Virus record (IMG/VR): IMGVR_UViG_3300023256_000008
Location: 1-42,202 of that record
Direction: 5' to 3' (one strand)
Source of the DNA: a virus
Taxonomy: Duplodnaviria; Caudoviricetes
DNA: 42,202 nt
Shown: piece after piece, positions 6,686 through 40,919 of the stretch
Layout of the letters: every line of letters begins with the position of its first letter
Numbering within the stretch: the stretch's first letter is position 1
The notes under the pieces: model-generated
Databases searched by the model: none
What the model saw: only the letters and a program-made list of their open reading frames with translations
What the model was told of the DNA's origin: nothing
Made by a program: the position numbers and the translations under genes

Positions 6686-7420
6686 CTAAAAAAATTTAAT
6701 AACCTCTCCAATCTTTTTGTCTCATTTATTTATTTCATTTAATATTAATTTAACTTGGATGTCAATATCTTTATATTTTTCGTTATCAATTCTAATTAAT
6801 AATTTATTTTGATTTATGGCTTCATTATTTTCCACATAATCTCTTAATTGTGATTTTTCGAAATCATGGTTTTTATGTATTTTCCTAAAATGATACGGGC
6901 CATCACTTTCAATCCAAATGTTTTTGTCTTCTGATACAATATCTATATCGAAATTAATCACATCGGTTTTAATTCTACAATGTCTCTTGAAGCCATATTG
7001 CTCTAATTTTTTTGCCAACCCTCTTTCTATTTTTGAAGAAAATCTATCATTATTTTGATTTGATGCAATGAAGTTTTCAAATTTTTCGGGATTTTCTTTG
7101 TAAAGGGTCGCAAGTGTTTCCGAAATCTTCTTTTTTTGTTTATCACTTCACTTTCTGCCATTGGCACATTTTTGACTACAAAATTTTTTATGTTTGTCTT
7201 GACGATTTTCTCTAACGGTTACTTCGAATGGTCCATTACATATCGGACAAATTATTTCTTTTGTAATTTTTTTACCAAATCGGGCATCAACACTATTTAA
7301 AAAATTTTTTCTGCCATCTTCACTATACTTTATTTTTTTATGCTTTCATCTAACATGATTTGCTTTTTGTTGTCACTTTTCAAACTCTTCTCCGCATATT
7401 TCGCATTCATATTTTTTCAT
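6686..7420 (-). CDS. Homing endonuclease-like protein (Zn finger, NUMOD3, Vsr/DUF559-like nuclease); needs TGA=Trp x4
   Basis: 244 aa with in-frame TGA at 7373, 7346, 7148, 6722; CEICG..NHVR[W]KH, GRK[W]SDKQKKKIS, IWIESDGPYH. Confidence 0.75.
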
Positions 7421-7490
7421 TTTTTTCTGCCTCCATATATAAGTATGGAGGCAGAAAGTTATATAGACTATTTTTGCCTATACAAACAAA

Positions 7491-8043
7491 TGGTGGAGGT
7501 GGTGGGACGTTATCTTAACTCTACTTTCTCAAACCATTTATAGTAGAGACGAGACTATCGCATCATCCCATAAGGATGTCTCTTCGCTTAGTCGTTCACG
7601 CTGGCACTACCCTTGCGCCCTGTCGTCCTATGGTAGGACTTCCAAGTCAATCAGAAGAGATTTATTCACTATACCTTTCAATACAGGTCGACAATTATAC
7701 TTATCGAACCCACGTCCACGAAGTCGCCTACTATAATTTTCTTACACACTTAGTTTATTTTACAATTTCAGATGCATCAAAAATAAACAAACCATACATC
7801 GCCCTCTTCGCCAGGTACATTGCGTTTCTACATGTTTTTATCATTGTTAGTAGTCACCAATTATCCTTCATTATGACTTCGATTTGCAGTGTAGAAAGAA
7901 TAGACACCGCACGAAGGGTGGCTTACGCCGCCATTAATTGGCTGTTGCCGTTTAATTTTGTTTTGCAACATAGTTCGTATGCTCGTTGCCATCATAGTGT
8001 GAATCATATAAGGCGGGTCTCCATGTCAAAACCGGTCACCCCC
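7491..8043 (-). ncRNA. ssrA: tmRNA interrupted by a group I intron
   Basis: GGGGGTG/CACCTCC-ACCA acceptor with G3.U70; tag frame GNSQLMAA* at 7923-7949; spliced length 358 nt. Confidence 0.92.
7508..7702 (-). mobile_element. Group I intron (195 nt, no ORF) in the tmRNA T-loop
   Basis: Exons rejoin as GTGGG-TTCGAT^T-CCCAC; 5' exon ends in U, intron ends in G; guide GTCGA pairs with exon TCGAT; P3 TCTCTTC/GAAGAGA; P7 GACTA/TAGTC. Confidence 0.85.
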
Positions 8044-8050
8044 TAATTAT

Positions 8051-8410
8051 TTAAAAACTTATTAATTTTGTCCAAACAAATGGTATATGACTTCCATATC
8101 CAAGTTCACTAATTATGTTAGTTGCGCCAGGAAAATTTAACGAATGCACATAAAGTGCAAACTTTGGTTTTTTTAAAGCATTTTTTGCCAACCATTGTGC
8201 CACTTCATACCCAGTACCCCCATCAGACTCTACCATTTCTAATCCGCCTAAGTCGTGGTCTAAGAATATATAGTCAAAAGGATTCTCTTTTCGTAATATT
8301 TTTATTGCTTTTTTACTTTCTTTTGCAATAGTTAAATCTGCATTTCTAAAGTTCTTACGAAATTGAGCAATTCTTTCATCGTTATCTTCCAATATAAAAA
8401 TTTTTGCCAT
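8051..8410 (-). CDS. Stand-alone receiver domain (cyclic-phosphate-processing type)
   Basis: ILEDN, IFLDHDLG, GTGYEVA, VHSLN. Confidence 0.7.
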   Translation of the reverse strand: MAKIFILEDNDERIAQFRKNFRNADLTIAKESKKAIKILRKENPFDYIFLDHDLGGLEMVESDGGTGYEVAQWLAKNALKKPKFALYVHSLNFPGATNIISELGYGSHIPFVWTKLISF

Positions 8411-8491
8411 TTTTTTTTCTCTCCTTTATTTAACTTACTATACTATAATATTCTTTTAGACGAACTTGTCAAGTTTGTTTTATTTTTTTTA

Positions 8492-8704
8492 TCAAACGTT
8501 GTGAGTTTTAGCTTTATCTTGTACTAACAAATCATGAGCCACTATAATACGTTCTGGCGTAATAGTCATTCTTTTCATCCTAACCCATTCATTGGTTTTT
8601 TTGCCTCTAAAGTAAAACTCTTGACCAAAACATCCGATTTCAGCATTTCCTATACAATCGTTTGGGTCCAAAGCCATATGTATAATATTAATTTCTTTAT
8701 TCAT
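8492..8704 (-). CDS. Hypothetical protein, paralog of 8714-8956
   Basis: Shared INI.H.ALDP, GC..QEFY.R, ITP.RI. Confidence 0.7.
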   Translation of the reverse strand: MNKEINIIHMALDPNDCIGNAEIGCFGQEFYFRGKKTNEWVRMKRMTITPERIIVAHDLLVQDKAKTHNV

Positions 8705-8713
8705 GTTTCCTCT

Positions 8714-8956
8714 TTAATTTACTTTATTTCCGTATATTGTAAATCTATCATCAGATTTATCAAGTGATAATAATTTATAAAAAAGTTCAATACGTTTTGG
8801 TGTGATATGTATTTTCTTCATTTTAGTCCATCTCGTCGCACCATTTGTCCTACAATAAAATTCTTGATTCTTACAGCCGAACTCACACAATCCGTCGTGG
8901 TGTGGATCTAAAGCTGTATGTTTAATATTAATACGCATTGGCATTTTTTGTTTCAT
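8714..8956 (-). CDS. Hypothetical protein, paralog of 8492-8704
   Basis: Same shared motifs. Confidence 0.7.
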   Translation of the reverse strand: MKQKMPMRINIKHTALDPHHDGLCEFGCKNQEFYCRTNGATRWTKMKKIHITPKRIELFYKLLSLDKSDDRFTIYGNKVN

Positions 8957-9023
8957 TTTGCACCAACTAATTGAATAAATTTATAATCTTTTTCTTTTTT
9001 TAGGTCTGTAATATTTACTTGTT

Positions 9024-9494
9024 TCATACTCTTCCCCTTTCATGTGAAATATCTGTTTTTATATTTTTAATTTCATTTACCAATAAAAAATCTACAAAAT
9101 CTTTTGGCGTTACTCCAGAATAAATTTTGAAATCTTTGCCAGTTATCCATGGCAATTTTTTTTTACAGTTAATTTCTTCAACTGTATTTCCCAAACAGGA
9201 GTTGGCAACAGGATAAGTAAATTTTATTGCTGATGTCCAAGTTAAATATAAAATACCCCACTTTGGGTTTGCAGAATCGCCCCATTGATTCCTTCGTTCT
9301 TTGGTCGGTTCAAATGGCGGACTACATTTATGAAATGAAGCGGTTGAACTCCAAAAGTCCCCATCTTGTCTTTTTAATTTTTGCGTAGTAAAATATGCAG
9401 TATTATCTTTCACAAAGCAAAGTTTGTATTTGCTTAAATTGTCATGCATCCAATGAGATAATTTCATTTTGATAGTAAATAATTTATTTTTCAT
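9024..9494 (-). CDS. Hypothetical protein
   Basis: 156-aa ORF immediately after a promoter. Confidence 0.6.
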   Translation of the reverse strand: MKNKLFTIKMKLSHWMHDNLSKYKLCFVKDNTAYFTTQKLKRQDGDFWSSTASFHKCSPPFEPTKERRNQWGDSANPKWGILYLTWTSAIKFTYPVANSCLGNTVEEINCKKKLPWITGKDFKIYSGVTPKDFVDFLLVNEIKNIKTDISHERGRV

Positions 9495-9535
9495 ATTACT
9501 ATAATACCTTACTTATGATTTTTGTCAACAATTAT

Positions 9536-10576
9536 CTAATACTCATTATCCAGTATATTTAGGAAATTTGCCCCAATTAATTGAGCAGTTTGTTTTCCAA
9601 CATTCTTATTTATTAATTTTCTGTCTTTCTTGACAAGTACATTTAATGCATCACTACCATTTTCTTCAATGTAATCTTTCATAACATCAGCAATAAATTC
9701 TTTGTTAAGTAAACCAAAATCTTTGTTTGTAATTTCTCCAATGTGAGATAAAACGTTACGTAATCTATTTTCAGTAACATACATGCTGATTTCTTCAACG
9801 ATAGGTTTGATTGCTTCATTGACTTCTTTTAATTGCTTTTTGGGTGCTTTGGTTTTTTCTTCCCATTTTTTATTTTTATTCTTAAATGCAACTCTAGATT
9901 TATCTCTAAAGTATAAATCTTCTACTGGCATAAATACATAACCTTCCATAATATTATCTTCTATTGGTGGAAGATCGAAATCCTTATATACTTCACTCAG
10001 CTCATCATTAGGTAAAGCTATCATTTCATCAAATGTACCAATAAATAAAACTTTTGGAGTTTTAAGTTTAGATTTTGTATATGTTAAACTTTCTATTAAT
10101 TCTGTCCAAGTAACGTGCCTATTTTTTGTATTATCGTCAAATATTAAAAGTATATCATAAATATATAATTCATTATGAGGGCAATAATATATGCCTTTTT
10201 GTACTTTTTTTCCACACTTATCATTTGATACATCTGGATGTGGATAAGTTCCACCAAACAGTTCACCAAATATAGCGATTTGATTAAGATTGGGATGTAT
10301 ATTTTTAAAGTATTTATATAGCTTTCTAGCATCTTCGGAATATTTTTCCATTATTAGTTCATAATTAAAAAAGAATTCATCTTTTTCGATAAAACTGGTT
10401 CTCTTTGCTGGTTTAATTTCGTCTTTATCAACCCACACAGAAAAATTTCCGCCATGAATTTTCTCAGTTGCAACCCATTTAATATCTGGCGCATCATATT
10501 CATGTTCCCTTACCATGTTGATAAATTTTTCTCTATAACTATTTTCTATACTTCTATACTTGATAAATCTTAACAT
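9536..10576 (-). CDS. RNA ligase, Rnl2 family
   Basis: EKIHGGNFS (motif I), FGELFGG, YDI, EGYV, FKNKN plus Rnl2-like C-domain. Confidence 0.9.
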   Translation of the reverse strand: MLRFIKYRSIENSYREKFINMVREHEYDAPDIKWVATEKIHGGNFSVWVDKDEIKPAKRTSFIEKDEFFFNYELIMEKYSEDARKLYKYFKNIHPNLNQIAIFGELFGGTYPHPDVSNDKCGKKVQKGIYYCPHNELYIYDILLIFDDNTKNRHVTWTELIESLTYTKSKLKTPKVLFIGTFDEMIALPNDELSEVYKDFDLPPIEDNIMEGYVFMPVEDLYFRDKSRVAFKNKNKKWEEKTKAPKKQLKEVNEAIKPIVEEISMYVTENRLRNVLSHIGEITNKDFGLLNKEFIADVMKDYIEENGSDALNVLVKKDRKLINKNVGKQTAQLIGANFLNILDNEY

Positions 10577-10705
10577 TGTGACTCCTATTTGTCTATTTTA
10601 TTATATCCAAAGCCTAGTTCTTTTGCAGTTTGGATAATTGCATCTTTCCAAGGTTTGCCACTATACCTTTGCCTTTGGCATAGCGTACCTAACATTATGT
10701 GCGCC

Positions 10706-11323
10706 TTAGTTTGTAAATTGTTTTTTAAAACTTTGGTAAGACTCTTCTGATATTTCAATCTCCTTTTTGTCTAATACGATAATTCTTGCTTTTGTGAATA
10801 TAGATTTATTCACATATCTTAATGACAACTCATTTCGCTTTACAGCTTCCAAACAAATCTCAGATGTTTGTTCTTTTACATATCTTAATGAATATCCATT
10901 TTGTTTTACAGCTTCTAAACAAATCTCAGATGTTTGTTCTTTTACATACCTTAATGAGTATCCATTTTGTTTTACGGCTTCCAGACAAATCTCCGATGTT
11001 TGTTCTTTTACATATTGTAGTGAGTCTCCATTTCGTTTTACAGCTTCCAAGCAAATCTCAGATGTTTGTTCTTTTACATATTGTAATGAATCTCCATCTT
11101 GTTTTACAGCTTCCAGACAAATCTCAGATGTTTGGTCTTTTACATATTGTAGTAAATACCCATCTTGTTTTACAGCTTCCAAGCAAATCTCAGATGTTTG
11201 GTCTTTTACATATTGTAGTAAATCTCCATCTTGTTTTACAGCTTCCAAAGCCTCTTTGCCGTCATAATCAATAATACCACTTTCTTCTCCATTTACTTTT
11301 TTCAAAAATTCTTTTAATGTCAT
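10706..11323 (-). CDS. DUF4116-like repeat protein
   Basis: Tandem 22-aa (66-bp) repeats EICLEAVKQNGxxLxYVKEQTS; start placed at ATG after AGGGG RBS. Confidence 0.8.
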   Translation of the reverse strand: MTLKEFLKKVNGEESGIIDYDGKEALEAVKQDGDLLQYVKDQTSEICLEAVKQDGYLLQYVKDQTSEICLEAVKQDGDSLQYVKEQTSEICLEAVKRNGDSLQYVKEQTSEICLEAVKQNGYSLRYVKEQTSEICLEAVKQNGYSLRYVKEQTSEICLEAVKRNELSLRYVNKSIFTKARIIVLDKKEIEISEESYQSFKKQFTN

Positions 11324-11337
11324 CTTATCCCCCTTTA

Positions 11338-11406
11338 TTTTTTTTATCTCTTTCACTCTCTCACTTACATTACTATAATATTCTTATTGATGGTTTTGTC
11401 AAGTTT
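11338..11406 (-). repeat. Repeated ~70-bp promoter/leader module
   Basis: Near-identical copies at 12473-12539, 15283-15343, 28692-28759. Confidence 0.85.
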
Positions 11407-11603
11407 ATTTTAATCTTCTTTCTTCACGCTTGAAATGCAACCATAAATACATTTTATTTATTCTGCCCCTTCTGTTTCTACACTCTTCAATACTAAATTT
11501 CCAACTTCGCCTAATGAGCCAAATGCATCGTCGAAATTACTTGATAAAAATTGTTCTGGACTCATTTCTAATTTGATTGTAACTACTACTTTTTTATTTT
11601 CCA

Positions 11604-11822
11604 TTACTTGTTCTCCTTATTTTTGGAATCATTAATCTCAATTTCGTCACTTATTTCTTGAAATATTTCTGCAACCTCAATTTCTTCTTGGGTTACTTTT
11701 TCATTATGAGATTTTTTTACTTTTGGCCATTTTGCCATTATCTTAAGAAATCTTTTTTGATTTGGATTTAAATTATCAAGAATTAATAGATTCTCAATAT
11801 CTTCTCTTTTTATTTTTTTCAT
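11604..11822 (-). CDS. Hypothetical protein
   Basis: TAATG coupling on both sides. Confidence 0.6.
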   Translation of the reverse strand: MKKIKREDIENLLILDNLNPNQKRFLKIMAKWPKVKKSHNEKVTQEEIEVAEIFQEISDEIEINDSKNKENK

Positions 11823-12448
11823 TATATCTCTCTTATTTTGACTGGAAGAATTGCATATGCGTTTTTGTCATATGATTTTAATATATCTTTTGCTTTAAGC
11901 AAAGTAAACTTTTTTGCAAAATTATCAAATGCGCTCATGTGCAAACTTCTTTTGGTTGATTTTGAAACATATGCGTTATGCTCTTTATTGAAAATAACAA
12001 ATTTTTTCTTGTCGAGTTTCATATTAATTACTTCTTGCACAAACTCTTCTTTAAGTTTTGCAACACCATCAAGCATTTTTTCATCTTTCAAAACTTCGAT
12101 TATTTTGACAATATTTTTGTAATTCCAATGAGTTTCTGGTGTAGCCTCATAAGTTGCAAGTGTTTCTTTTGGAGTCTTTGGTAAATCACTTGCGTCATAG
12201 GCACTCAACCCAGTTAATTCTTTCATCAGTTTATCATACTTATACGCCAGATTTTCAATAGCAATATTTTTATCACTTCTTGTTTTGAATTGAATGTTTC
12301 CGCCAAATATTTCTTTGATTACTTCACTAATTGGAAAATATCTTGACCAATAATTTGAACGTGGCATAACATTATTGTCTCCGCCTTTAACTTTACAGGT
12401 TAACTCTTTCTTGTTGATTGAAATAGCATTTGCACAAAAATAACTCAT
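11822..12448 (-). CDS. Hypothetical protein
   Basis: 208 aa, GAGGAG RBS after promoter module. Confidence 0.75.
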   Translation of the reverse strand: MSYFCANAISINKKELTCKVKGGDNNVMPRSNYWSRYFPISEVIKEIFGGNIQFKTRSDKNIAIENLAYKYDKLMKELTGLSAYDASDLPKTPKETLATYEATPETHWNYKNIVKIIEVLKDEKMLDGVAKLKEEFVQEVINMKLDKKKFVIFNKEHNAYVSKSTKRSLHMSAFDNFAKKFTLLKAKDILKSYDKNAYAILPVKIREI

Positions 12449-12709
12449 ATTAATCTCCTCTTTATTTCTTTATTTTTTATCTCTTTCACTCTCTCACTTA
12501 CATTACTATAGTATTCTTATTGGTGGTTTTGTCAAGTTTTTTAATCTGATTGCGAATGGTTTGCAAATGCATTCAAAACTTTACTTATTTACAACATTCA
12601 GGTATTAAAATAAACTAATCTTAAAGTATTGTAAGTTTTTTATTTCATTCCAATCTCCTTTATTTATAATACAACAAATGCTATTCCAACTACTAACAAA
12701 GCAAAATCT

Positions 12710-12844
12710 GGTAAAACTGGAAAGAAAAGCCGTATTGATTCTCTCGAAATACATCATAAAGACAGAAACACAAACAATAATGACCCAAAAAATCTTATAG
12801 TTTTAACAGTAAAAGAACACGATGATTTACACAGCCGTGACTAA
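12710..12844 (+). pseudogene. HNH endonuclease remnant
   Basis: EIHHKDRNTNNNDPKNLIVLTVKEHDDLH on the plus strand; no in-frame start found. Confidence 0.7.
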
Positions 12845-13084
12845 TTTCATGTTCTGAATGCTAATAATTGACCCAGTAGGTATTAACATGATATTTCTAT
12901 AATCTCCCTCATCGTTATACTCTTCTGCAATAATTGTGGTTATATCATCTTTTTCAAGTAAATATCCTAATGTTGTAAATAAACACATTTTGACTTTCTC
13001 GCATTCGTCTTTTGTATATGTTCCAGTGTATAATCTTGCATCATGCCAGACAATGCAAACTGGTTTATATTGATTTTTATTCAT
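12827..13084 (-). CDS. Hypothetical protein
   Basis: AGGAG RBS; IVWHDA motif. Confidence 0.65.
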   Translation of the reverse strand: MNKNQYKPVCIVWHDARLYTGTYTKDECEKVKMCLFTTLGYLLEKDDITTIIAEEYNDEGDYRNIMLIPTGSIISIQNMKLVTAV

Positions 13085-13100
13085 CTTGTGTCTCCTTTAT

Positions 13101-13646
13101 TTATAATACAACAAATGCTATTCCAACTATTAACAAAACAAAATCTTGCCAAACAGCCCTTGGAACAATAATCCAACCGTTAAGAACATCCCAACTTGAT
13201 TTCTGTGGCCATAAATCATTATAAGATATATGATTAAATACTCTTTCATAAAAGAATATTCCAGCCATCGTTGCCCCCATATAATCAAACAATAATCCTT
13301 GTAATGCATAACCCTGATGTGCCAACCAAACATACATTATAACAGAACCAAACATTCCAACATTCTCGCCCATAACTCGCCATGTATGGTAACACCACCT
13401 GCCCTGAGCGGTTTTGAATAATGGGCTGTCGTGAATTCCAGGTCTTATAATATAATTGCCATGTCGCCTTTCGCTAGTTGACCACGTATATCCTTCAGTT
13501 GCACCTTCACCTACCCAATACCACATTGTGAACATTATTGCCGATGCTACTGGAGATAATCATGTAACTCCTACAGCAATACAAATAAGTGCAATCTCTA
13601 TCCAATGATTTACGACTCAATTTCCAATATCTTTAATCCATTTCAT
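13101..13646 (-). CDS. Trp-rich membrane protein; needs TGA=Trp x2
   Basis: AGGAG RBS before ATG 13646; MKWIKDIGN[W]VVNHWIEIALICIAVGVT[W]LSPVASAI runs in frame into the tracked ORF; 181 aa. Confidence 0.75.
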
Positions 13647-33951: not shown

Positions 33952-33963
33952 TTAATAATATAT

Positions 33964-34039: not shown

Positions 34040-34047
34040 GTAAAATT

Positions 34048-34373: not shown

Positions 34374-34448
34374 TAGCCATCCTGAGACTCGAACTCAGAC
34401 TGTACAGCGTTTGAAACTGCTTCCTCTTCCAGATTGGGATAGATGGCC
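34374..34448 (-). tRNA. tRNA-Leu(CAA) with short variable loop
   Basis: GCAGT-TTCAAAC-GCTGT. Confidence 0.7.
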
Positions 34449-34512
34449 TTATATAACAAAATCAGGATACATTTTTTGCTTGCTTTACTACTTAAGCTAT
34501 CTCCCAATAAAA

Positions 34513-34591
34513 TGGTACAGACGAAGGGACTCGAACCCTCATATGACGCAGGATATGATTCTGCCGCTTCATCCAATTGAGCCACGTCTGC
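34513..34591 (-). tRNA. tRNA(CAT), Met or Ile2
   Basis: Loop ATCATAT. Confidence 0.75.
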
Positions 34592-34599
34592 ATAAAATT

Positions 34600-34675
34600 T
34601 GGCACCCCTGGAGAGATTCGAACTCCCGACTTAAAATTCGTAGTTTTATATGATATCCAATTTCACCACAGGGGC
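34600..34675 (-). tRNA. tRNA-Arg(ACG)
   Basis: Loop CTACGAA. Confidence 0.9.
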
Positions 34676-34681
34676 ATAAAT

Positions 34682-34760
34682 GATTTAAGTAGTAAAAGTG
34701 GAATCGAACCACCATTTGTCTAAAAGGCCTTGCTCAACCGCATCCTATACTAATTAAATC
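34682..34760 (-). ncRNA. Small T-arm-containing RNA
   Basis: GATTTAA/TTAAATC closing stem, GTGG-TTCGATT-CCAC. Confidence 0.4.
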
Positions 34761-34765
34761 TAAAA

Positions 34766-34842
34766 TGGAATCGGTGCCGAGACTCGAACTCGGAATTTGT
34801 AGGGTTGCAATCTACCGCCTTAGCCAATTTAGCTACACCGAC
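34766..34842 (-). tRNA. tRNA-Cys(GCA)
   Basis: Loop TTGCAAC, U73. Confidence 0.9.
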
Positions 34843-34850
34843 ATAAAATT

Positions 34851-34935
34851 TGGTACTCCTGGAGAGACTCGAACTCTCACGACCTTTCGGCCACCTGCTT
34901 CTAAGGCAGGCGTGTATTCATTCCACCACAGGAGC
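34851..34935 (-). tRNA. tRNA-Leu(TAG)
   Basis: Loop CTTAGAA, variable arm. Confidence 0.9.
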
Positions 34936-34946
34936 ATATAAAAAAA

Positions 34947-35035
34947 TGGTAGGCAAGGTGGGAGCCGAACCCACAACAGGCTTTCGCCACACTGGATTTT
35001 AAGTCCAGCCGATAATCCAATTCTCGTACTTGCCC
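34947..35035 (-). tRNA. tRNA-Leu(TAA)
   Basis: Loop CTTAAAA, variable arm. Confidence 0.85.
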
Positions 35036-35077
35036 ATTTATTTTACCGTTACATATAATTATTTTAAATTAAAAAAT

Positions 35078-35173
35078 ATGTAAAAGATAGGATTTGAACC
35101 TATAAAATAGAACTACTAATTCTATCTGACCCCCCTTCGGGGCTTTAGATTGCCACTTTCTTCACTTTTACAT
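35078..35173 (-). ncRNA. tRNA-like RNA without a normal anticodon arm or CCA
   Basis: ATGTAAAAG/CTTTTACAT; ATAGG-TTCAAAT-CCTAT. Confidence 0.5.
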
Positions 35174-35182
35174 ATTAAAATT

Positions 35183-35234
35183 TGGTATCCTACGGCCGAG
35201 AACCGTAAATCCTTACCATTTAGACGATGAGAAC
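35183..35234 (-). pseudogene. tRNA-Glu(CTC) remnant lacking the T-arm
   Basis: D-arm and TACGG-TTCTCGG-CCGTA followed directly by GGATACCA. Confidence 0.6.
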
Positions 35235-35242
35235 ATAAAGCT

Positions 35243-35328
35243 TGGTACGCCCGACGGGGTTCGAACCCGCTTCCCCATAATGGGACCAGAGTGAAAGTCT
35301 GGTGACCTGCCAATTAGTCATCAGGCGC
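35243..35328 (-). tRNA. tRNA-Glu(TTC) with long variable arm
   Basis: Loop CTTTCAC; variable arm TCCCATTATGGGGA. Confidence 0.8.
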
Positions 35329-35334
35329 ATAAAA

Positions 35335-35410
35335 TGGTATCCCTACAAGGATTCGAACCTTGACTATAAGTTTAGGAAACTCAAGTGCTTATCCATTACA
35401 CTATAGGGAC
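35335..35410 (-). tRNA. tRNA-Arg(CCT)
   Basis: Loop TTCCTAA. Confidence 0.9.
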
Positions 35411-35416
35411 ACAAAA

Positions 35417-35493
35417 TGGGGTATGAAACGGAAATCGAATCCGCATCTACAGGAGCCACAATCCTGTGCTTTTCCAATTAAGCTATTCACACC
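35417..35493 (-). tRNA. tRNA-His(GTG)
   Basis: G-1/C73, loop TTGTGGC. Confidence 0.9.
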
Positions 35494-35500
35494 ATAAAAT

Positions 35501-35578
35501 TGGTGCAGGCGGCGGGAATCGAACCCACATTTCCCGCTTAAAAGGCGGATGCCAAGACCAGTAATTTGCTACGCCTGC
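35501..35578 (-). tRNA. tRNA-Lys(TTT)
   Basis: Loop CTTTTAA. Confidence 0.85.
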
Positions 35579-35586
35579 TTGAAAAA

Positions 35587-35663
35587 TGGTACGGGCGGTT
35601 GGGCTTGAACCAACATTTCCTCGCTTATAAGACGAGTTCCTTCACCGAGTCGGACACACCCGC
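35587..35663 (-). tRNA. tRNA-Ile(TAT)
   Basis: Loop CTTATAA. Confidence 0.85.
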
Positions 35664-35676
35664 ATAATTGAAAGTT

Positions 35677-35753
35677 TGGTACGCCAGGGTGGAATCGAAC
35701 CACCAATCTTCCGGATATCAGCCGAACGCTCTAACCGACTAAGCCACTGGCGC
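35677..35753 (-). tRNA. tRNA-Ile(GAT)
   Basis: Loop CTGATAT. Confidence 0.9.
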
Positions 35754-35761
35754 ATATAATT

Positions 35762-35848
35762 TGGTAGGAGTAGAAGGATTCGAACCTACTTAGCCAACAG
35801 GCGTCCGGCCTACAACCGGGTGGAGTTCACCGTCACTCCAGTACTCCC
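35762..35848 (-). tRNA. tRNA-Tyr(GTA)
   Basis: Loop TTGTAGG, variable arm. Confidence 0.8.
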
Positions 35849-35856
35849 AAAAAAAA

Positions 35857-35932
35857 TGGTGCTCTTGGAGAGACTCGAACTCCCAACGACCTACTTACAA
35901 GGCAGGGCTTCTTCCAATTGAATTACAAGAGC
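35857..35932 (-). tRNA. tRNA-Thr(TGT)
   Basis: Loop CTTGTAA. Confidence 0.9.
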
Positions 35933-35937
35933 AAAAA

Positions 35938-36068
35938 CAGGATAATATTTTTTATTCCAACGTGTCTACCAATTTCACCATTACTAACTATCAATTAGTA
36001 AGTAGGACTCGAACCTACACGACATTACATCATCAGATTTTAATTTTTGGTTTGCTGTTATTATCCTT
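35938..36068 (-). ncRNA. YrlA-like RNA (circularly permuted tRNA on a CAGCAAA stem)
   Basis: AGGATAATA/TATTATCCT; order T-arm, loop-closed acceptor TTACTAA/TTAGTAA, D-arm. Confidence 0.65.
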
Positions 36069-36078
36069 AATATTAAAA

Positions 36079-36155
36079 TGGCGGGGATAACGGGACTTGA
36101 ACCCGTACTCTCTGCCTTGACAGGGCAGCGACTTGACCAATTCGTCTATATCCCC
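36079..36155 (-). tRNA. tRNA-Asp(GTC)
   Basis: Loop CTGTCAA, G73. Confidence 0.9.
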
Positions 36156-36216
36156 ATGTATTAAATAATCTTTTTTGTTATTTTCTTTTAATTTTTCGTT
36201 CACATCTCTATAAATT

Positions 36217-36301
36217 TGGTGCGAGTGGTAAGATTCGAACTTACTTAGCCTAGGCGTCAGCTTTACAGGCTGGTGCAACTCTCCCACGTTGCCGCACTCG
36301 C
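36217..36301 (-). tRNA. tRNA-Tyr(GTA)
   Basis: Loop CTGTAAA, variable arm. Confidence 0.85.
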
Positions 36302-36340
36302 ATAAAACTTAATCAGCAACATATTACTGATTATAAAAAA

Positions 36341-36416
36341 TGGCTGTCCTGGAGGGGCTTGAACCCACATTTGTCACGTTAACAGCGTGCCGCCTTACCG
36401 AGTTGGCTACAGGACA
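36341..36416 (-). tRNA. tRNA-Asn(GTT)
   Basis: Loop CTGTTAA, G73. Confidence 0.9.
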
Positions 36417-36423
36417 ATAAAAA

Positions 36424-36500
36424 TGGTACCCAGCATCGGACTTGAACCGATACAACCTATCTTGTAAGGATAGTGCTCTCCCAAATTGAGCTAGCTGGGC
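36424..36500 (-). tRNA. tRNA-Val(TAC)
   Basis: Loop CTTACAA. Confidence 0.9.
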
Positions 36501-36512
36501 ATAAATTAATAA

Positions 36513-36591
36513 TGGTGGAGATACTGGGATTTGAACCCAGCTGACGTCCTGATTGCAAAACAGGTGACCACCCCTAGCAGTCCCTATCCCC
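36513..36591 (-). tRNA. tRNA-Ala(TGC)
   Basis: G3.U70, loop TTTGCAA. Confidence 0.85.
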
Positions 36592-36600
36592 GTGTAAAAA

Positions 36601-36677
36601 TGGTACACCCGATGAGACTTGAACTCATAACTTCAGCCTTAAAAGGGCCGTACTCTGCGCAATTGAGTTACGGGTGC
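36601..36677 (-). tRNA. tRNA-Lys(TTT)
   Basis: Loop CTTTTAA. Confidence 0.9.
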
Positions 36678-36700
36678 ATAAAAAATAAAATATATAAAAA

Positions 36701-36776
36701 TGGCACCCCCACAAGGATTCGAACCTTGACTATAAGTTTAGAAAACTTAAGTGCTCGTCCATTACACTATAGGGGC
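36701..36776 (-). tRNA. tRNA-Arg(TCT)
   Basis: Loop TTTCTAA; near-duplicate of Arg(CCT). Confidence 0.9.
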
Positions 36777-36794
36777 ATAAAAAATATAATAATA

Positions 36795-36874
36795 TGGTGG
36801 AGACGGAGGGTATCGAACCCTCGAACTAAACGTTCCATTTGTTGGTTTACGTTCAGTTTCACCTTTTCGCCCCC
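36795..36874 (-). ncRNA. 80-nt RNA resembling the tmRNA tRNA-like domain
   Basis: GGGGGCG/CGTCTCC-ACCA with G3.U70, no D-stem, long helix in place of the anticodon arm, canonical T-arm. Confidence 0.65.
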
Positions 36875-36953
36875 TGGGAACGGATTGCGGAGTTGAACCA
36901 CATTTAATACTGGCTTATGAAACCTGCCGAGATACCGACCTCGTCCATCCGTG
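36875..36953 (-). tRNA. tRNA(CAT), atypical, 1:72 mismatch
   Basis: Loop TTCATAA, CCA. Confidence 0.65.
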
Positions 36954-36969
36954 TCGTAATAATAATAAA

Positions 36970-37044
36970 TGGAGCGGGCTGGGGGTTACAATCCCCCGAC
37001 TAATGGTTGGAAGCCACTTATTTTGTCAATTAAACTAAGCCCGC
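36970..37044 (-). tRNA. tRNA-Gly(TCC)
   Basis: Loop CTTCCAA, U73; atypical T-loop ATTGTAA. Confidence 0.8.
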
Positions 37045-37063
37045 TTAAATTGTTTTTTTATTT

Positions 37064-37140
37064 TGGTCGGGTGAGCCAGAATCGAACTGGCTAATCCAGG
37101 TTTCCAGAACCCAGATGCTTATAGCCTTAGTCACCACCCG
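37064..37140 (-). tRNA. tRNA-Pro(TGG), atypical
   Basis: C1-G72, A73, loop TCTGGAA, extended anticodon stem. Confidence 0.75.
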
Positions 37141-37208
37141 TTATTTGTCTTATAATATATTGTATGCTATAAACATACAATTGTATTCCTTAAACATACA
37201 ATAAAAGT

Positions 37209-37266
37209 CAGGACATATTTATTTACTTTACAATAGTAGTTTTTTTAATTTGCTGTATATGTCCTT
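37209..37266 (-). ncRNA. CAGCAAA-family small RNA
   Basis: AGGACATAT/ATATGTCCT stem with ACAGCAAA. Confidence 0.5.
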
Positions 37267-37280
37267 TACATATATAATAT

Positions 37281-37324
37281 TGGTACCGAAGGGCAGACTC
37301 GAACTGCCAACCTTTAGATTATGA
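37281..37324 (-). pseudogene. 3' half of a disrupted tRNA(CAT)
   Basis: TCATAA-TCTAA-AGGTT-GGCAG-TTCGAGT-CTGCC-CTTCGGT-ACCA. Confidence 0.8.
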
Positions 37325-38107
37325 CTTCATAATTATTAATTCGCACTCATAACCATTATTCTTATACATTTTAAATTTATCATCCATATTTTGTTTATTA
37401 TAAGTATAATTACATTTTATTTCTACTATTTTATTTTCCAAAGGTAAGTAAAAATCTGGTATTGCTATACTATATCTTTTTTTTTGAGTATCATAATATA
37501 TAAGCCTTTTTGATTCCATTTCATATGGAATTTTTTGTTTGTCTAAATTTTTGGCATATCTTAGTTCGTAACTGCTTCTGTAAAATACTTGTTTTCCGTG
37601 CCAAGTTGTATGCCATCCATGTTTGTACTTGTTTTCACAAGGCATATTACGTCTATTATTATGCAAACAAATTAATTGAGCCTTAGATTTTCTTCTCATA
37701 GAAATTTTATGTTTATTAAAGAAATTACGTAACGATAATTCATGTATATTAAATTTTTCTTGTATTTCCAATGATGATAGTTGTAAGTTATTATATAAAT
37801 ATCATAATTTTTGTAATGCTTCGTGCCCTGCCTCTTTTAATGATAGGTCGGTATAATTTATATCTAACCTGTCAAATAATAGTTTATTTTGTATATATTT
37901 ATGACATTCAAAGCAATATTTTTTCTTACTTTTGGGCGTTTTATTATTACAACTAATACAATAAGTTTGTGTATTTTTTTGTAATGAATTGCTTATTTTT
38001 TCTTTTGTTTTTTGAGAATGATTTCGAGAATTGGCGCAACTTCTGCCACAAAACCTTCCAGAACCATAATTGCCGTCATGTTCTTTATTACAATTTTCAC
38101 ATTTCAT
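37319..38107 (-). CDS. Homing endonuclease-like protein (Zn ribbons, NUMOD3, TnsA-like nuclease); needs TGA=Trp x1
   Basis: Tracked ORFs 37802-38107 and 37319-37771 are in frame across a single TGA; YRSSYE, IPDF, VEIK; 262 aa. Confidence 0.8.
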
Positions 38108-38180
38108 AATTGTTCTCCTATATTAATAAGTATAGTCGAACCTAAAAATTTAGTATATATTTTTTTATATACCAAAAAAA

Positions 38181-38257
38181 TGGTAGCGATAACTGGACTT
38201 GAACCAGTAACCTCACAAGATATGAGCTTGGAATTCTACCAATTGAACTATATCGCC
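38181..38257 (-). tRNA. tRNA(CAT), probably Met
   Basis: GGCGATA/TATCGCT-ACCA, loop CTCATAT. Confidence 0.85.
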
Positions 38258-38270
38258 ATAATTGTATTAT

Positions 38271-38294
38271 GCCCACCAGTTGTGCTACTTCGGT
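38271..38294 (-). pseudogene. 5' fragment of the disrupted tRNA(CAT)
   Basis: ACCGAAG-TA-GCACAACTGGT; ACCGAAG is the exact complement of CTTCGGT in the 3' half. Confidence 0.7.
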
Positions 38295-38420
38295 ATAAAT
38301 TTTGAATATCTTACATCCACAAAGACCACTTCTATAAGTTGAGATTGTTTCTCAACCCTCTTATAAAGATTCTGCTAACTTTCACTTATTTTACTTATTC
38401 TAAAAAAACTTTTTACAAAC

Positions 38421-38453
38421 AAAAAAGCCCAAGACTTTAGGTTCTTGGGCTTT
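38421..38453 (-). terminator. Attenuator terminator upstream of the tRNA array
   Basis: AAAGCCCAAGA/TCTTGGGCTTT plus U run. Confidence 0.8.
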
Positions 38454-38474
38454 ATAATATATTTATATCTTAAC

Positions 38475-38606
38475 TTATATAAAGCCCGGCGGTCCCAATT
38501 CACCAAAAATCGCATCCACTGTATTCATATTTCTATGGCAATACGGACGTTCCTGTGGTGTCCATGTTGATAACGATTTGAGTGATATTGAACTTTGCTT
38601 TTTCAT
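38475..38606 (-). CDS. Putative leader peptide (43 aa, all 20 amino acids)
   Basis: AAGGA RBS; MKKQSSISLKSLSTWTPQERPYCHRNMNTVDAIFGELGPPGFI*; last codons form the antiterminator arm. Confidence 0.75.
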   Translation of the reverse strand: MKKQSSISLKSLSTWTPQERPYCHRNMNTVDAIFGELGPPGFI

Positions 38607-38924
38607 TTTGATATTCCTTTTTAATTTTTTTTGAAACTCTTTTTGTCTCTTACATTAATATATATTGAGACAATAAAGAAAACTCTATTTTTTTTGTTTT
38701 TTTTTAAAATTTGTTAACTTAGGTCTAACTCTTTTGTTTCATTCTCTAAAAATCCTGCCTTTCGGAACTATCCTTACGACTGCTTCTCGGGACTTACGCC
38801 GTAGGACATTTTCAGGGCTAATGAGAAATAAAACCATATTAACATTTCACTCTATATTCTTTTAAGTGAGCTGACACTTTAGCCATTTAACCCTATTGAG
38901 GCAGATGTGGGACTCACTTGCTCT

Positions 38925-38988
38925 TTCACTTTATATAGACAACATAATCTATTAGGATAAATTGTCAAATCTTTTTTTACTTTTTTTT
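38925..38988 (-). promoter_or_regulatory. Promoter duplicated at about 40247-40308
   Basis: TTGACA-N16-TATGTT; near-identical ~60-bp copies, each ahead of a non-coding structured region. Confidence 0.65.
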
Positions 38989-38998
38989 CTTGATGAAT

Positions 38999-39130
38999 GA
39001 AAAAGTAAGGCTGGGTCTGCGTTTGTATTCCCAGCTTTTTGTTATTTGGTTTTATGTTTGGTCTTTTATCCGGACTGTACGGCCGGAAGACGTTCGGATC
39101 CAAAAATAACCGCAGGTCGCTTACTTTTTC
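38999..39130 (-). ncRNA. Rod-shaped ncRNA candidate, possibly 6S-like
   Basis: GAAAAAGTAAG/CTTACTTTTTC closing stem, CTGCG/CGCAG, apical TCCGG/CCGGA. Confidence 0.4.
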
Positions 39131-39503
39131 ACTCTATAATTTGTTTGGTAAATATAATATTTCAGCATTAATATTCCTGCAATTACCGTGCCCTTTTCTC
39201 ACATACACGAGCAAGTCATATAATTAAATACAAGTTATTCTGTATGCTGTTTCTTTACACTAATATTCCCCAATTTTTATTTGAAAGGTGGGGTTAAATC
39301 AGCCTTAGTCCATACCCAGGAGCCTGTATCGCAATTTATATAATTATTTCGTCAATCTGTTTTTGCTCCGGAACCATAGTCAGCAGATAAACCTTAGGTC
39401 TCATTCCCACGCTCAATACGTATCAAACGTATATAACAAAATAACTAATGTGCGGTCATTGGCTTTAATCCAAATGGCGCTTTCAACCGTCTCTCAAACA
39501 TTA

Positions 39504-39644
39504 AATAGAATAGAATAAATTGCCAGTCGTTCAACATAAATGAGACCTTCAGCATCCAACAGCAGTCTCTTGTTTTTGGTTGCCCTGTCTTACGGGGGTT
39601 GGATTTAACAATGCTTTCACACGTTTGATTTATTCTATTCTATT
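39504..39644 (-). ncRNA. Structured RNA candidate closed by a 17-bp inverted repeat
   Basis: aatagaatagaataaat/atttattctattctatt; internal ATCCAAC/GTTGGAT and GAGAC/GTCTC. Confidence 0.45.
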
Positions 39645-39650
39645 AATTAA

Positions 39651-39826
39651 ATAAATGGTAGGATTCGATTCCTACATTCTATGGCCACTTGAATCATAAA
39701 AAAACGCTTTACCTCTTTATTAAGCTACCAACCAATTAAGTTTGGGGTTAAATTAGGAATTCAACCTAATCGGACTCGAACCGCCACTATATTTTTTTAT
39801 GTGCGTCTCTATTGCGCCACATCTAT
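39651..39826 (-). ncRNA. Nested double tRNA-like RNA
   Basis: Outer acceptor, D-arm and T-arm; long anticodon helix encloses a second T-arm and D-arm. Confidence 0.55.
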
Positions 39827-39984
39827 TCTATTAAAAAATGATACAAGGAACATAAGGTTCGAACTCATAAATCGTCTTTGCCTTTGACAGTTAAGTATCA
39901 TTTTTTCTCTTTCACTCTATATAACTATAATATTCTTTTAGGTAATCTTGTCAATTCTTTTTTCGTTTTTCTTTTAATAACATA

Positions 39985-40240
39985 AGAAATTGAGGTGTGC
40001 TTTCACGCTAAAACTCGGCTACCGTCTTTTCTAATTAGTGTAATCACTTAAACATACGGTAAGTTGCTCTCCGCTTCCATATGATACTTACTAAGACAGT
40101 ACTTTCGAAATACTTCCACCAGAGATTTATGAGAGACAGGTTTAAATAATGAGATTGTAAATCATCCCCGTTCTGGTATGTTATCTTTCCAAATACTCTT
40201 TAAATGATGGCTGCCTCTAAGCCTACATTCCACAACTTCT
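39985..40240 (-). ncRNA. RNA mimicking the 23S rRNA L11-binding domain (H43-H44) with a large insertion
   Basis: ATGTAGGCTTAGAGGCAGCCATCATTTAAAGA...AGCGTGAAAGCACAC, closed by AGAAGTTG/CAATTTCT. Confidence 0.75.
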
Positions 40241-40454
40241 TTTTTTTTCACTCTATATAGACAACATAATCTATTAGGATAAATTGTCAAATCTTTTTTT
40301 ACTTTTTTCCTTATTGTTATTTTTTATCTTATTTGACAATTCAAATTGTCTTATTGTCATTTTACTTAATCGTTGTGTGAATATCGCATTCAACCAATTT
40401 CGATTTTAAATCTATAACAGAACCTCTTGCCAAATATAGTAAAGTTTATGCACT

Positions 40455-40919
40455 TTATTTACCGAACTCTTCAGCTATACTTTTTATCAATATATCTAAT
40501 TCGTATCTACATGTTATTCCATTATTTTCACATTTCGCTTCAATGTATCTCATGTTGTAAGCATTAAATGGAAACCCTAATCTTATTTTGGTTGGGACTT
40601 TCCCAAGCCAATATCCAAACTCGATGTTTGTTGTAAAGCCAGGTAAAGTTTCTTTATCTCTTGGTATCCAAAATAGAACAATATCTGCTTCTTCCATAGC
40701 CTGCTCTTCTCAATCGATTTGCTTGTCATAATGAAAATCGTCAATCGAAGTAGTTTCAAATTCAGGCAATAACAATGTGCCTTCAAACTTATATTTTTTA
40801 AATAATTCAATTGCTTCTGGTCGTCAACTCTTAACGTTATTATTGCGGGGAGAAGGCCCCGCCAAAAATATTGACGAGCCTTCTATTTTAATTTCTTCTT
40901 GTGCGTATATAATGTTCAT
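40455..40919 (-). CDS. Nucleoside 2-deoxyribosyltransferase-like protein; needs TGA=Trp x2
   Basis: SIFLAGPSPR..VKS[W]RPEA...QID[W]EEQAM..ADIVLFWIPR...TTNIEFG; 154 aa. Confidence 0.85.

Follow-up and report, generated by a model that had tools for sequence, protein, structure and literature searches.

TGA codons within six genes of the window

In the window (the whole 42,202-nucleotide stretch of phage DNA analyzed here), six open reading frames contain in-frame TGA codons (4, 2, 2, 5, 1, and 2; 16 in total) and no internal TAA or TAG (Table 1). A sequence-only reading of this DNA had described 16 in-frame TGA codons in six otherwise intact genes, and the description was borne out: the ORFs were checked, and contigs from another run, X13, which carries no flag as a possible source, had the identical TGA codons rather than TGG. 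These contigs showed no differences from the window over positions 5200-8441, 13100-15271, 36712-38961, and 40279-42174; over 15319-18000, mismatches occurred at 17162, 17323, and 17812, with no TGA site among them. Each of the six ORFs is encoded on the minus strand, a point that the sequence-only reading had left out of its description.

The endonuclease-like gene beside the tmRNA gene matched PHROG 1271/559 "HNH endonuclease" (E 1e-6 and 7e-5), and the one heading the tRNA array matched PHROG 15137/945 endonuclease profiles (E 4e-6 and 3e-4). Two cassettes were missing from strain X23: 15707-16561 with tRNA-Gly (16618-16691), where the X23 contig joins 15703 to 16690, and 37319-38107 with tRNA-Met (38181-38257), where it joins 37306 to 38276. 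In the predicted membrane protein (13101-13646), whose ATG is preceded by AAGGAG, both TGA codons lie in an N-terminal extension. Most of its 58 relatives align only from residue ∼37, and the TGA columns are gaps in 28 and 23 of 30 aligned rows, so no Trp comparison is possible there.

The six genes together carry 16 TGA and 22 TGG codons, compared with no internal TGA and 109 TGG in the other 67 window genes, a split picked on its outcome. In a permutation test over the window and its L004 extension, TGA fell in 6 of 62 Trp-bearing genes where 13.9 were expected (P < 1e-4); P values for five other codon pairs ranged from 0.03 to 0.65. With all 27 TGA codons taken as Trp, 15 of 56 genes were affected where 20.9 were expected (P = 0.002).

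Table 1. Positions of TGA-bearing genes, terminal TGA codons, and RNA and promoter features in the window
Feature	Position	Strand	Details
Endonuclease-like gene, free-standing, adjoins tmRNA	6686..7420	-	4 TGA (7373, 7346, 7148, 6722), 1 TGG
Trp-rich predicted membrane protein	13101..13646	-	2 TGA (codons 10, 29), 12 TGG
TnsA-like/NUMOD3 endonuclease gene	15707..16561	-	2 TGA, 3 TGG; PF08722 (E 1.5e-12), PF07460
Small hydrophobic protein, no family match	16735..17082	-	5 TGA, 2 TGG
Endonuclease-like gene, head of tRNA array	37319..38107	-	1 TGA, 2 TGG
Nucleoside 2-deoxyribosyltransferase-like gene	40455..40919	-	2 TGA (codons 32, 70), 2 TGG; PF15891 (E 2.4e-12)
TGA stop, TGATG	5587..5589	-	Coupled to PF04071 gene 5357-5587
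TGA stop, ATGA	9024..9026	-	End of 9015-9494; coupled to next ORF (24 aa), itself ending in ATGA-coupled TGA
TGA stop, ATGA-coupled	End of 8908-9027	-	Second coupled stop after 9015-9494
TGA stop, ATGA	14823..14825	-	Coupled to 52-aa ORF 14668-14826
TGA stop, ATGA	26245..26247	-	Coupled to 26066-26248
TGA then TAA immediately	1202..1204 and 8492-8494	-	
Ambiguous terminal TGA	ORFs 25074-25787 and 18418-18732		
tmRNA-like gene	7701..8036	-	RF00023, 47.9 bits (gathering score 47)
tRNA array	28818..38257	-	33 of the window's 34 ARAGORN tRNAs; no UCA anticodon
Sole tRNA-Trp of the window, anticodon CCA	33252..33329	-	5-bp anticodon stem, G28.U42, G24, A9
Repeats directly upstream of tRNA-Trp	33333..33485	-	33-nt unit x2.7; 22-nt palindromic unit x2
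Sigma70-type promoter repeat, 12 copies	4300..42199	-	TTGACA-N16/18-TA[CT]TAT
Identical stretch shared with record G005 (70.8 kb)	42076..42200		125 nt; G005 contains a heavily recoded replication and tail block

Tryptophan columns and TGA stops

When homologues were aligned at the TGA columns, Trp occupied both columns of the deoxyribosyltransferase-like protein in 120 of 120 sequences. In the tail sheath protein of G005, the adjoining record from this same phage, Trp is family conserved at two of five TGA columns (60/60 and 56/60). The other three are not conserved (one has Gly in 21/60), and the closest relative carries Trp opposite all five. In three aligned pairs, two of them syntenic orthologues, the window has TGG opposite a TGA of the relative G001; one G001 TGA stands opposite Gly in its window orthologue. 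In the fast-evolving nucleases, most TGA columns face residues other than Trp. Code 25 (TGA as Gly, as in Gracilibacteria/Absconditabacteria phages) was ruled out by the Trp at conserved columns. The seemingly internal TAGs, which numbered 2, 3, and 7 across three recoded phages, looked on inspection like junctions of neighboring in-frame genes, leaving only TGA as an interruption and ruling out code 15 or other TAG recoding in this phage, G001, and G003/G004. TAG remains a stop even though both relatives carry CUA tRNAs.

Nine window genes end in TGA: five are coupled to the next start, the TGA lying over a downstream ATG, two are backed by TAA, and two are ambiguous. The stops that had been singled out beforehand (5587, 14823, and 26245 as coupled; 1202 and 8492 as TAA backed) were all as described. 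ORFs downstream of the coupled stops span 24 to 80 aa, versus just 1 to 18 aa, with a coding score of <1, for overlaps at the 16 internal TGAs. The next TAA or TAG follows at a median of 4 codons past TGA stops (n = 9) versus 15 past other stops (n = 64; P = 0.043). Homologue Trp columns and coupled TGA stops thus back the claim that TGA stands for Trp in some genes and for stop in others.

Distribution across the genome, promoter motifs, and likely host

An X13 contig continues past position 42200 with the same 30 letters as G005. The first 28 kb of G005 hold 9 TGA and 127 TGG codons and the remainder (28 to 70.8 kb) 82 TGA and 89 TGG, with a P value (2e-16) that is nominal because the boundary was set after the data were seen. 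TGA carriers include the tail sheath, tail tube, baseplate, helicase, recombinase, and ribonucleotide reductase genes; nine genes of the tail/baseplate block contain 42 TGA and 22 TGG, and a homing endonuclease gene (61360-63111, 583 aa) has 7 TGG and no TGA. Two relatives (G001 and G003/G004) show the same TGA pattern. The proposal that recoding is confined to nucleases and membrane proteins fell with these carriers, whereas its companion, a phase-dependent code, stands as the best inference from genome layout.

Sigma70-type repeats in the window begin at 4331, 4762, 8472, 9528, 11402, 12535, 15339, 28755, 30698, 31789, 39954, and 42199; four more occur in the first 28 kb of G005, and beyond that there are two matches, both within genes. 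Judged by these repeats, the window, part of a TGA-poor region of small genes, is likely early, early and late being putative classes drawn here from sequence motifs alone. In sets outside those defining it, the motif ATA(C/T)TTAT occurred ≤70 nt upstream of 9 of 50 TGA genes versus 1 of 108 TGG-only genes in G005 and G001 (P = 1.4e-4) and of 4 of 49 versus 0 of 92 in G003/G004 (P = 0.013). It was not top ranked in an unbiased 7-mer search. A ATACTTAT motif ends 18 nt upstream of the ATG of 6686-7420 and lies 18 nt upstream of that of 37319-38107, and ATATTTAT lies 19 nt upstream of that of 15707-16561; the three non-nuclease TGA genes of the window have no ATA(C/T)TTAT near their starts.

The lineage turned up in 23 runs from salt lakes and in a single marine run, and gene similarity points to Cloacimonadota as the likely host. 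We saw 119 kb of a genome estimated at 220 to 325 kb, about half remaining unseen. No lysis cassette was identified in these 119 kb, and no terminase was recognized among the 40 G005 and 37 window proteins scanned (one weak small-terminase match in the window).

Decoding of UGA and comparison with known systems

We consider it probable that this jumbo myovirus-like phage infects a standard-code host and uses TGA for Trp in some genes and for stop in others, with UGA decoding likely switched on in midinfection. Early genes would stay TGG-only because host RF2 still terminates at UGA while they are translated. A phage-made UGA reader, most likely tRNA-Trp(UCA), perhaps accompanied by TrpRS or RF1, and presumably encoded in the unseen half of the genome, would then appear. 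Since TGA occurs in the genes for helicase, recombinase, and ribonucleotide reductase, the switch would have to come before DNA replication. In genes transcribed from then on, TGG-to-TGA changes would be tolerated under AT pressure, leaving these genes dependent on the switch; mobile endonucleases among the early genes, with a candidate late-promoter motif of their own, would belong to this set. The remaining TGA stops would tolerate read-through because TAA or TAG lies close behind. The pattern expected of an evolved TGA lock "restricting" proteins would also arise by drift in genes that are expressed once the switch has occurred.

As had been claimed, none of the 34 window tRNAs, which together cover all 20 amino acids, has a UCA anticodon. 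Extending the search for such a tRNA and a release factor 1 beyond the window yielded neither: UCA tRNA, RF-1-family, and TrpRS-family genes were not found in the 119 kb of this phage (including the 6.5-kb L004 extension, covered by tRNA scan only), 56 kb of G001, and ∼94 kb of G003/G004. The search spanned main arrays of 34, 33, and 25 tRNAs, respectively. PF00472 matched none of 7 records and PF00579 none of 5, all of them fragments.

Each of the three recoded phages has one Trp-CCA tRNA. It is conceivable, though unlikely, that the phase-dependent code of this saline-water lineage uses this near-cognate tRNA, strongly expressed, with a loosened anticodon or D stem (relatives have a 4-bp stem or A24, and here there would be a dedicated promoter flanked by repeats) and perhaps RF2 inhibition, and no UCA tRNA. 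The tRNA-Trp of G001 has an unpinned U27xU43 top pair and A24, that of G003 has A24 and U31.G39 with 27:43 paired, and the window tRNA has G28.U42, whereas the canonical Trp-CCA tRNAs of candidate hosts (5/5) are fully paired with G24. A 4-bp-stem Trp-CCA tRNA reportedly raised UGA read-through in Escherichia coli ∼2.5-fold (PMC13092985), and a TGA suppressor was detectable in only 35% of code-4 gut phages (10.1101/2021.08.26.457843). The window gene is also one of two among 34 tRNA genes with an 11/12 sigma70 match ≤90 nt upstream, and its upstream repeats contain a TTGACT-N16-TATAAT site. However, these repeats were not found before tRNA-Trp of G001 or G003, and the window tRNA, with G27-C43 paired, lacks a 4-bp stem, A24, and C9. 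Among 92 tRNAs of the three arrays (a few possibly misregistered), 53 had non-Watson-Crick anticodon-stem pairs and 12 an unpinned top pair, which makes the Trp tRNAs unexceptional in looseness. Essential genes with 11 to 12 TGA codons would require near-complete decoding, and the Jade code-change module sits beside a lysis cassette, a region outside the part seen. A strictly Blastocrithidia-like tRNA-Trp(CCA) (unpinned 27:43, 7-nt loop, no A9C/G24A) was rejected given the paired G27-C43 of the window and A24 in G001 and G003.

Less probable still is that TGA is constantly Trp (code 4 across the whole phage, or a host that uses code 4), its uneven spread reflecting expression-linked codon bias and its stops short read-through tails. 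All nine terminal TGAs do meet TAA or TAG within 21 codons, G001 has just 2 candidate TGA stops in 97 genes, and no CRISPR spacer tying the phage to a host was found. Yet TGA-free genes use A-ending codons for 83% of Lys/Glu/Gln while showing 0 TGA among 129 Trp codons, and five of the terminal TGAs show coupling to real starts downstream. Candidate hosts keep RF2 (5/5 genomes) and its CTT-TGA-C frameshift site (3/3 loci read); TGA was 3 of 28 sampled stops. A further suggestion, that the TGA genes are decayed or are imports from code-4 phages and are not fully translated here, has the two mobile cassettes among the six in its favor but is very improbable and largely refuted by TGA in structural and replication genes, by TGA-only interruptions, and by TGG/TGA swaps in place between syntenic orthologues. 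A sequencing or assembly artefact or selenocysteine/glycine (code 25) decoding, despite the Gly-aligned G001 codon and a tRNA-Sec(UCA) in one candidate host, is hardly credible against the X13 contigs and the conserved Trp columns.

By layout, the phage is a member of the partial code-4 phages, of Agate/Jade type. Agate phages are ∼127-kb gut phages with TGA as Trp in structural genes and standard code in early and replication genes (10.1101/2021.08.26.457843). Structural TGA, standard-code early genes, a TGA-written homing endonuclease among them, and a predicted standard-code host are shared. Unlike in Agate phages, the genes for helicase, recombinase, and ribonucleotide reductase contain TGA here, the endonucleases stand free instead of sitting in a group I intron, and the habitat is saline water, with Cloacimonadota as likely host. 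Jade phages carry tRNA-UCA, TrpRS, and RF1 in a "code change module" upstream of the lysis cassette (10.1101/2021.08.26.457843), and a phage-derived AP1 TrpRS:tRNA(UCA) pair has been shown to insert Trp at UGA (PMC12636597). Recoded genes likewise span several modules of a large genome here, and a decoder of the Jade/AP1 type is the expected kind, but no such module was found in the 119 kb covered here.

Blastocrithidia nonstop and "Ca. Zinderia insecticola" have tRNA-Trp(CCA) whose anticodon stem spans 4 bp (PMC13092985). Like them, our phages have UGA as Trp with no UCA tRNA detected, and G001 shares the unpinned 27:43 pair; unlike them, the window tRNA has a 5-bp stem, and A24 excludes G001 from the "Blastocrithidia-like" class of PMC13092985. 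In that survey of bacterial genomes, "phage" appears once, in a reference. T4 SegB is a free-standing GIY-YIG homing endonuclease in a tRNA gene cluster, with RNA hairpins over its ribosome-binding site (PMC2330249). The endonuclease genes here similarly lie beside tRNA genes, vary among strains, and would have early expression held down at translation, but the three match TnsA-like, HNH-labeled, and other endonuclease profiles and carry TGA codons.

The TGA layout is already published for gut phages; the lineage, habitat, likely host, and ATA(C/T)TTAT motif before recoded genes are new. These data extend partial UGA-to-Trp recoding, known mainly from gut phages, to a salt-lake/marine jumbo lineage that likely infects Cloacimonadota. 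One survey called 0 to 0.65% of non-gut jumbo phages alternatively coded (PMC13037316), and a stretch like the window would evade coding-density filters because just 6 of 73 genes are affected. The recoded replication genes suggest a switch that acts before DNA replication, beyond gating lysis alone, and the upstream motif offers a testable tie between codon use and the class in which a gene is transcribed. With three large tRNA arrays that all lack a UCA tRNA, how UGA is decoded in suppressor-less phages becomes a testable question. If the near-cognate tRNA-Trp(CCA) reading were true, the Blastocrithidia/Zinderia mechanism would extend to phages and could explain many of the code-4 phages in which no suppressor is detectable.

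Number and meaning of in-frame TGA codons

The sequence-only reading had reported 16 in-frame TGA codons in six genes free of internal TAA or TAG, and this count was confirmed: the ORFs carry 4, 2, 2, 5, 1, and 2 TGA codons, in the order of the table, and zero internal TAA or TAG. All 16 codons are identical in contigs of another run (X13) and are therefore not assembly errors. The window has a GC content of 31.7%, with almost every gene on the minus strand, and its DNA was listed for 23 runs with a salt lake label and for one marine run, 24 in all, none of which is an RNA run.

Genes were called with our own codon-score caller, not Prodigal, giving 74 window genes, one of which was discarded as spurious. 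Left out before counting were the calls at window 31229, at 19423 of L004 (another assembly, providing a 6.5-kb extension), and at 51021-51278 of G005 (an overlapping 70.8-kb record of the same phage), as well as two calls in the relatives G003/G004. Trimming removed TGAs taken as terminal or as lying before the start from nine window genes, three genes of the relative G001, and one G005 gene, and lone TGAs within the last 8 codons from G003/G004 genes. The six genes hold 16 TGA and 22 TGG codons; in the remaining 67 window genes there are 109 TGG, and internal TGA is absent. Across the window and the L004 extension, which added 14 calls (13 retained), TGA occurred in 6 of 62 Trp-bearing genes versus 13.9 expected (P < 1e-4) with nine C-terminal TGAs taken as stops; when these were scored as Trp instead, the figures were 15 of 56 versus 20.9 (P = 0.002). 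The same clustering statistic gave P values of 0.03 to 0.65 for five control codon pairs. Neither a +4/-1 context rule nor positional bias distinguished TGA from TGG.

The proposed translation of TGA as Trp was borne out by homologue alignment for 40455-40919 (PF15891), where each of the 120 aligned homologues, taken as the best out of 384, has W at both TGA columns. For this phage's tail sheath, aligned with 60 of 120 listed homologues, two of the five TGA columns are conserved W (60/60 and 56/60) and the other three are variable; the closest relative among the matches listed has W at all five. Three aligned positions place a window TGG opposite a G001 TGA, two of them in syntenic orthologues, and one G001 TGA lies opposite Gly. 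The proposal gained nothing from the nucleases, whose TGA columns are too divergent to inform on the residue, or from 13101-13646, whose TGAs fall in an extension absent from most homologues. Recoding of TAG was rejected: TAG is a stop in this phage, G001, and G003/G004, and G001 and G003 keep it so despite one CUA-anticodon tRNA each. These two tRNAs differ from each other in the acceptor stem, and the window has no counterpart.

Recoded genes elsewhere in the phage and in its relatives

G005 shares 125 identical bases with the right end of the window, and an X13 contig extends beyond 42200 with the same next 30 letters as G005. TGA is unevenly distributed in this record: up to 28 kb it makes up 9 of 136 Trp codons and further on 82 of 171, a boundary set after inspecting the data. 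Nine genes of the tail/baseplate block hold 42 TGA and 22 TGG. Genes for the tail sheath (5 TGA), tail tube (2), DnaB-like helicase (2), UvsX/RecA (1), ribonucleotide reductase (7), baseplate hub and wedge, and two GIY-YIG-like nucleases (7 and 3) are recoded; a homing endonuclease of 583 aa uses TGG throughout (7 codons). The earlier description of the recoded set as nucleases and membrane proteins thus stands only in part: three of the six window genes match endonuclease profiles, but tail, baseplate, helicase, recombinase, and ribonucleotide reductase genes are recoded too. The TGAs may have been selected as a lock on such genes or may have accumulated by drift where they do no harm. Of a sigma70-type promoter repeat, the window has 12 copies and G005 a further 4 within its first 28 kb; beyond 28 kb there are two matches, both inside genes. 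From this distribution, the window is probably the early region, with the six TGA genes as exceptions. In total, 119 kb was seen of the 220 to 325 kb implied by completeness figures; within it, neither a terminase nor a capsid or lysis module could be recognised.

The same layout recurs in G001 (56 kb, 73% on the marker), where 44 TGA and 174 TGG codons were counted, TGA occurs in 20 of 76 Trp-bearing genes versus 33.1 expected, and four nuclease-like genes have TGA only. The more distant G003/G004 (~94 kb) are also recoded. A further relative, G002 (100 kb, 41% on the marker), was rejected as recoded, its TGAs lying mostly at gene ends, and was treated as standard code. A genome scan gave no relatives for 6686-7420, nor did three window proteins used as single queries against viral contigs; a degenerate motif for TGA-bearing deoxyribosyltransferase genes had one match, discarded as an off-frame chance hit in a 59% GC contig.

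Features of the window, the rest of the phage, its relatives, and a candidate-host contig
Feature	Location	Observation
TGA-bearing genes	window 6686-7420, 13101-13646, 15707-16561, 16735-17082, 37319-38107, 40455-40919	all on minus strand
Strain-variable cassette	window 15704-16689	endonuclease gene and tRNA Gly-GCC; missing in strain X23
Strain-variable cassette	window 37307-38275	endonuclease gene and tRNA Met-CAT; missing in X23
Translation/RNA-repair genes	window 7701-8036, 9536-10576, 13670-14038, 26843-27730; L004:16697-18235; L039:4757-6145 (G005)	tmRNA, ribosomal L7/L12, two RNA ligases, RtcB, tRNA nucleotidyltransferase-like gene
Short tRNA-like elements	window 36795-36874, 30011-30098	score against tmRNA model; acceptor and T arm of the first are tmRNA-like, with a CCA end and without an anticodon arm
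Recurring non-coding GGA-ACA-CAGCAAA ... TGT-TCC in tRNA region	window 37201-37274, ~35950-36070, ~30800, ~29050; L018:9909-9978 (G001)	no Rfam family at threshold
ORF-poor stretch (~2 kb)	window 38257-40455; G001 counterpart L018:8560-9830	no credible ORFs; degenerate tRNA-like and hairpin sequences; part missing in X23
HDV-like ribozyme model	window 34305-34372; L018:18789-18856	both matches weak, at 25.6 and 36.5 bits against a gathering score of 44
CUA tRNAs	L020:10579-10653 (G001); L034:2376-2450 (G003)	well-formed; 67 and 61 bits to RF00005
tRNA-Ile(UAU)	window 35587-35663; L018:14413-14488; L034:3571-3646	in all three recoded phages
tRNA-Trp flank	window 33333-33485	immediately upstream of the tRNA gene: 33-nt unit x2.7, palindromic 22-nt unit x2, sigma70-like site; relatives without; possible operator array
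Single-base differences	window 17323, 36151	one base longer there in higher-depth contigs from other runs; the single-base deletions of the window may be minor variants or errors
Altered arrangement	L004:1122-1715 vs window 12548-13595	part of 12474-12547 repeated, 13101-13646 region arranged otherwise; possible rearrangement at promoter repeat
Internal repeat	window 12605-12757	repeats end of membrane gene 13101-13646
Ribonucleotide reductase	L039:9585-12272	intein-like insert (PF14890/PF07591 matches) besides the TGAs
Likely counter-defence candidates	L039:12286-12831, L039:13030-13671, window 29280-29870	Tad6-like match (PF25188, 3 TGA), two SAM-lyase-like genes (PF23780)
Fragment in candidate-host contig G008:C99	L147:11313-13022	matches window 11637-12198 at 75-78% in DNA; seemingly part of a phage gene, over cellular ORFs

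TGA at gene ends and a motif upstream of recoded genes

That TGA also functions as a stop, as had been proposed, was supported by the sequence. Window genes end in TAA (50), TAG (15), or TGA (9); five of the nine terminal TGAs overlap the ATG of a downstream 24- to 80-aa ORF, two directly precede TAA, and two are ambiguous. At internal TGAs, overlapping ATGs open no credible ORF. The next TAA or TAG lies a median of 4 codons past TGA stops versus 15 past other stops (P = 0.043), as would be expected if TGA stops in the window were sometimes read through.

All three nuclease genes of the window have ATA(C/T)TTAT, which is the T4 late consensus in reverse complement, 18 to 19 nt before the ATG; it is absent near the starts of the three non-nuclease TGA genes. 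Among genes that did not define the motif, in G005 and G001 it lies upstream of 9 of 50 TGA genes versus 1 of 108 genes with TGG only, and in G003/G004 the counts are 4 of 49 versus 0 of 92. It did not come first in an unbiased 7-mer ranking, and one literature search showed no paper on it among the entries listed. We regard it as a candidate late promoter. The pairing of endonuclease with tRNA genes in the two cassettes resembles T4 SegB, which sits in the T4 tRNA cluster (PMC2330249).

Candidate host and decoding of UGA

Two genes are suggestive of a Cloacimonadota host. The best 7 of 80 kept matches to the G005 thioredoxin, at 73 to 78% identity, include four titled Cloacimonadota and two Ca. 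Tenebribacter, which we take to belong to that phylum. When the window FeoA gene was searched within Cloacimonadota alone, its DNA was 80% identical to that of the best-matching genome. In five such genomes RF2, the release factor at UGA, is intact, and the Trp-CCA tRNA is fully paired and has G24; TGA makes up 3 of 28 sampled stops in candidate-host genomes. No CRISPR spacer against window 1-20000 was evident in 232 genomes of the phylum, a weak negative given that 2 to 4 candidates were scored per genome, and no relevant paper on Cloacimonadota phages was found by title or abstract start. Contig G008:C99 is cellular-looking apart from its fragment.

Scans agreed with the sequence-only reading that the window (34 tRNAs) has no UCA-anticodon tRNA, and none was found in the L004 extension, G005 (0 tRNAs), G001 (33), or G003/G004 (25). 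No RF-1-family gene was found in seven records and no TrpRS-family gene in five; TCA anticodon-arm scans returned only D-arms of known tRNAs or coding DNA, and the tRNA-Sec model cut-off was reached in 0 of 5 records. The window and G001 share a Leu-AAG tRNA, and the UAU anticodon of the tRNA-Ile is unusual in bacteria.

Each phage carries one Trp-CCA tRNA, and UGA might be read near-cognately by this tRNA in a loosened form. That of G001 has U27xU43 and A24, that of G003 has A24 and U31.G39, and that of the window has only G28.U42; in E. coli, one study reports, unpinning 27:43 raises UGA read-through ~2.5-fold (PMC13092985). However, a control takes most of the force out of this explanation: across all 92 tRNAs of these arrays, 53 carry a non-Watson-Crick stem pair and 12 have an open top pair. 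Genes carrying 11 to 12 TGA also require efficient decoding. Moreover, the code-change module of Jade phages is described as adjoining lysis genes (10.1101/2021.08.26.457843), and the lysis region is absent from the part of the genome seen here. On these grounds, a cognate UCA tRNA in the unseen part is more likely. No paper on point concerning near-cognate decoding in phages was found by title or abstract start.

Published code-4 phages of standard-code hosts have recoded structural and lysis genes, with detectable suppressors in 35%, and the Agate type has a recoded intron endonuclease inside an early gene (10.1101/2021.08.26.457843). A phage TrpRS:tRNA(UCA) pair inserts Trp at UGA, as another study shows (PMC12636597). 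The present phage appears to work like an Agate/Jade-type partial recoder, with TGA at conserved Trp columns and with structural genes recoded and likely early genes largely compatible with the standard code. In such a phage the host would use the standard code, a UGA decoder would be expressed before replication, and the genes expressed after the switch would depend on that decoder.
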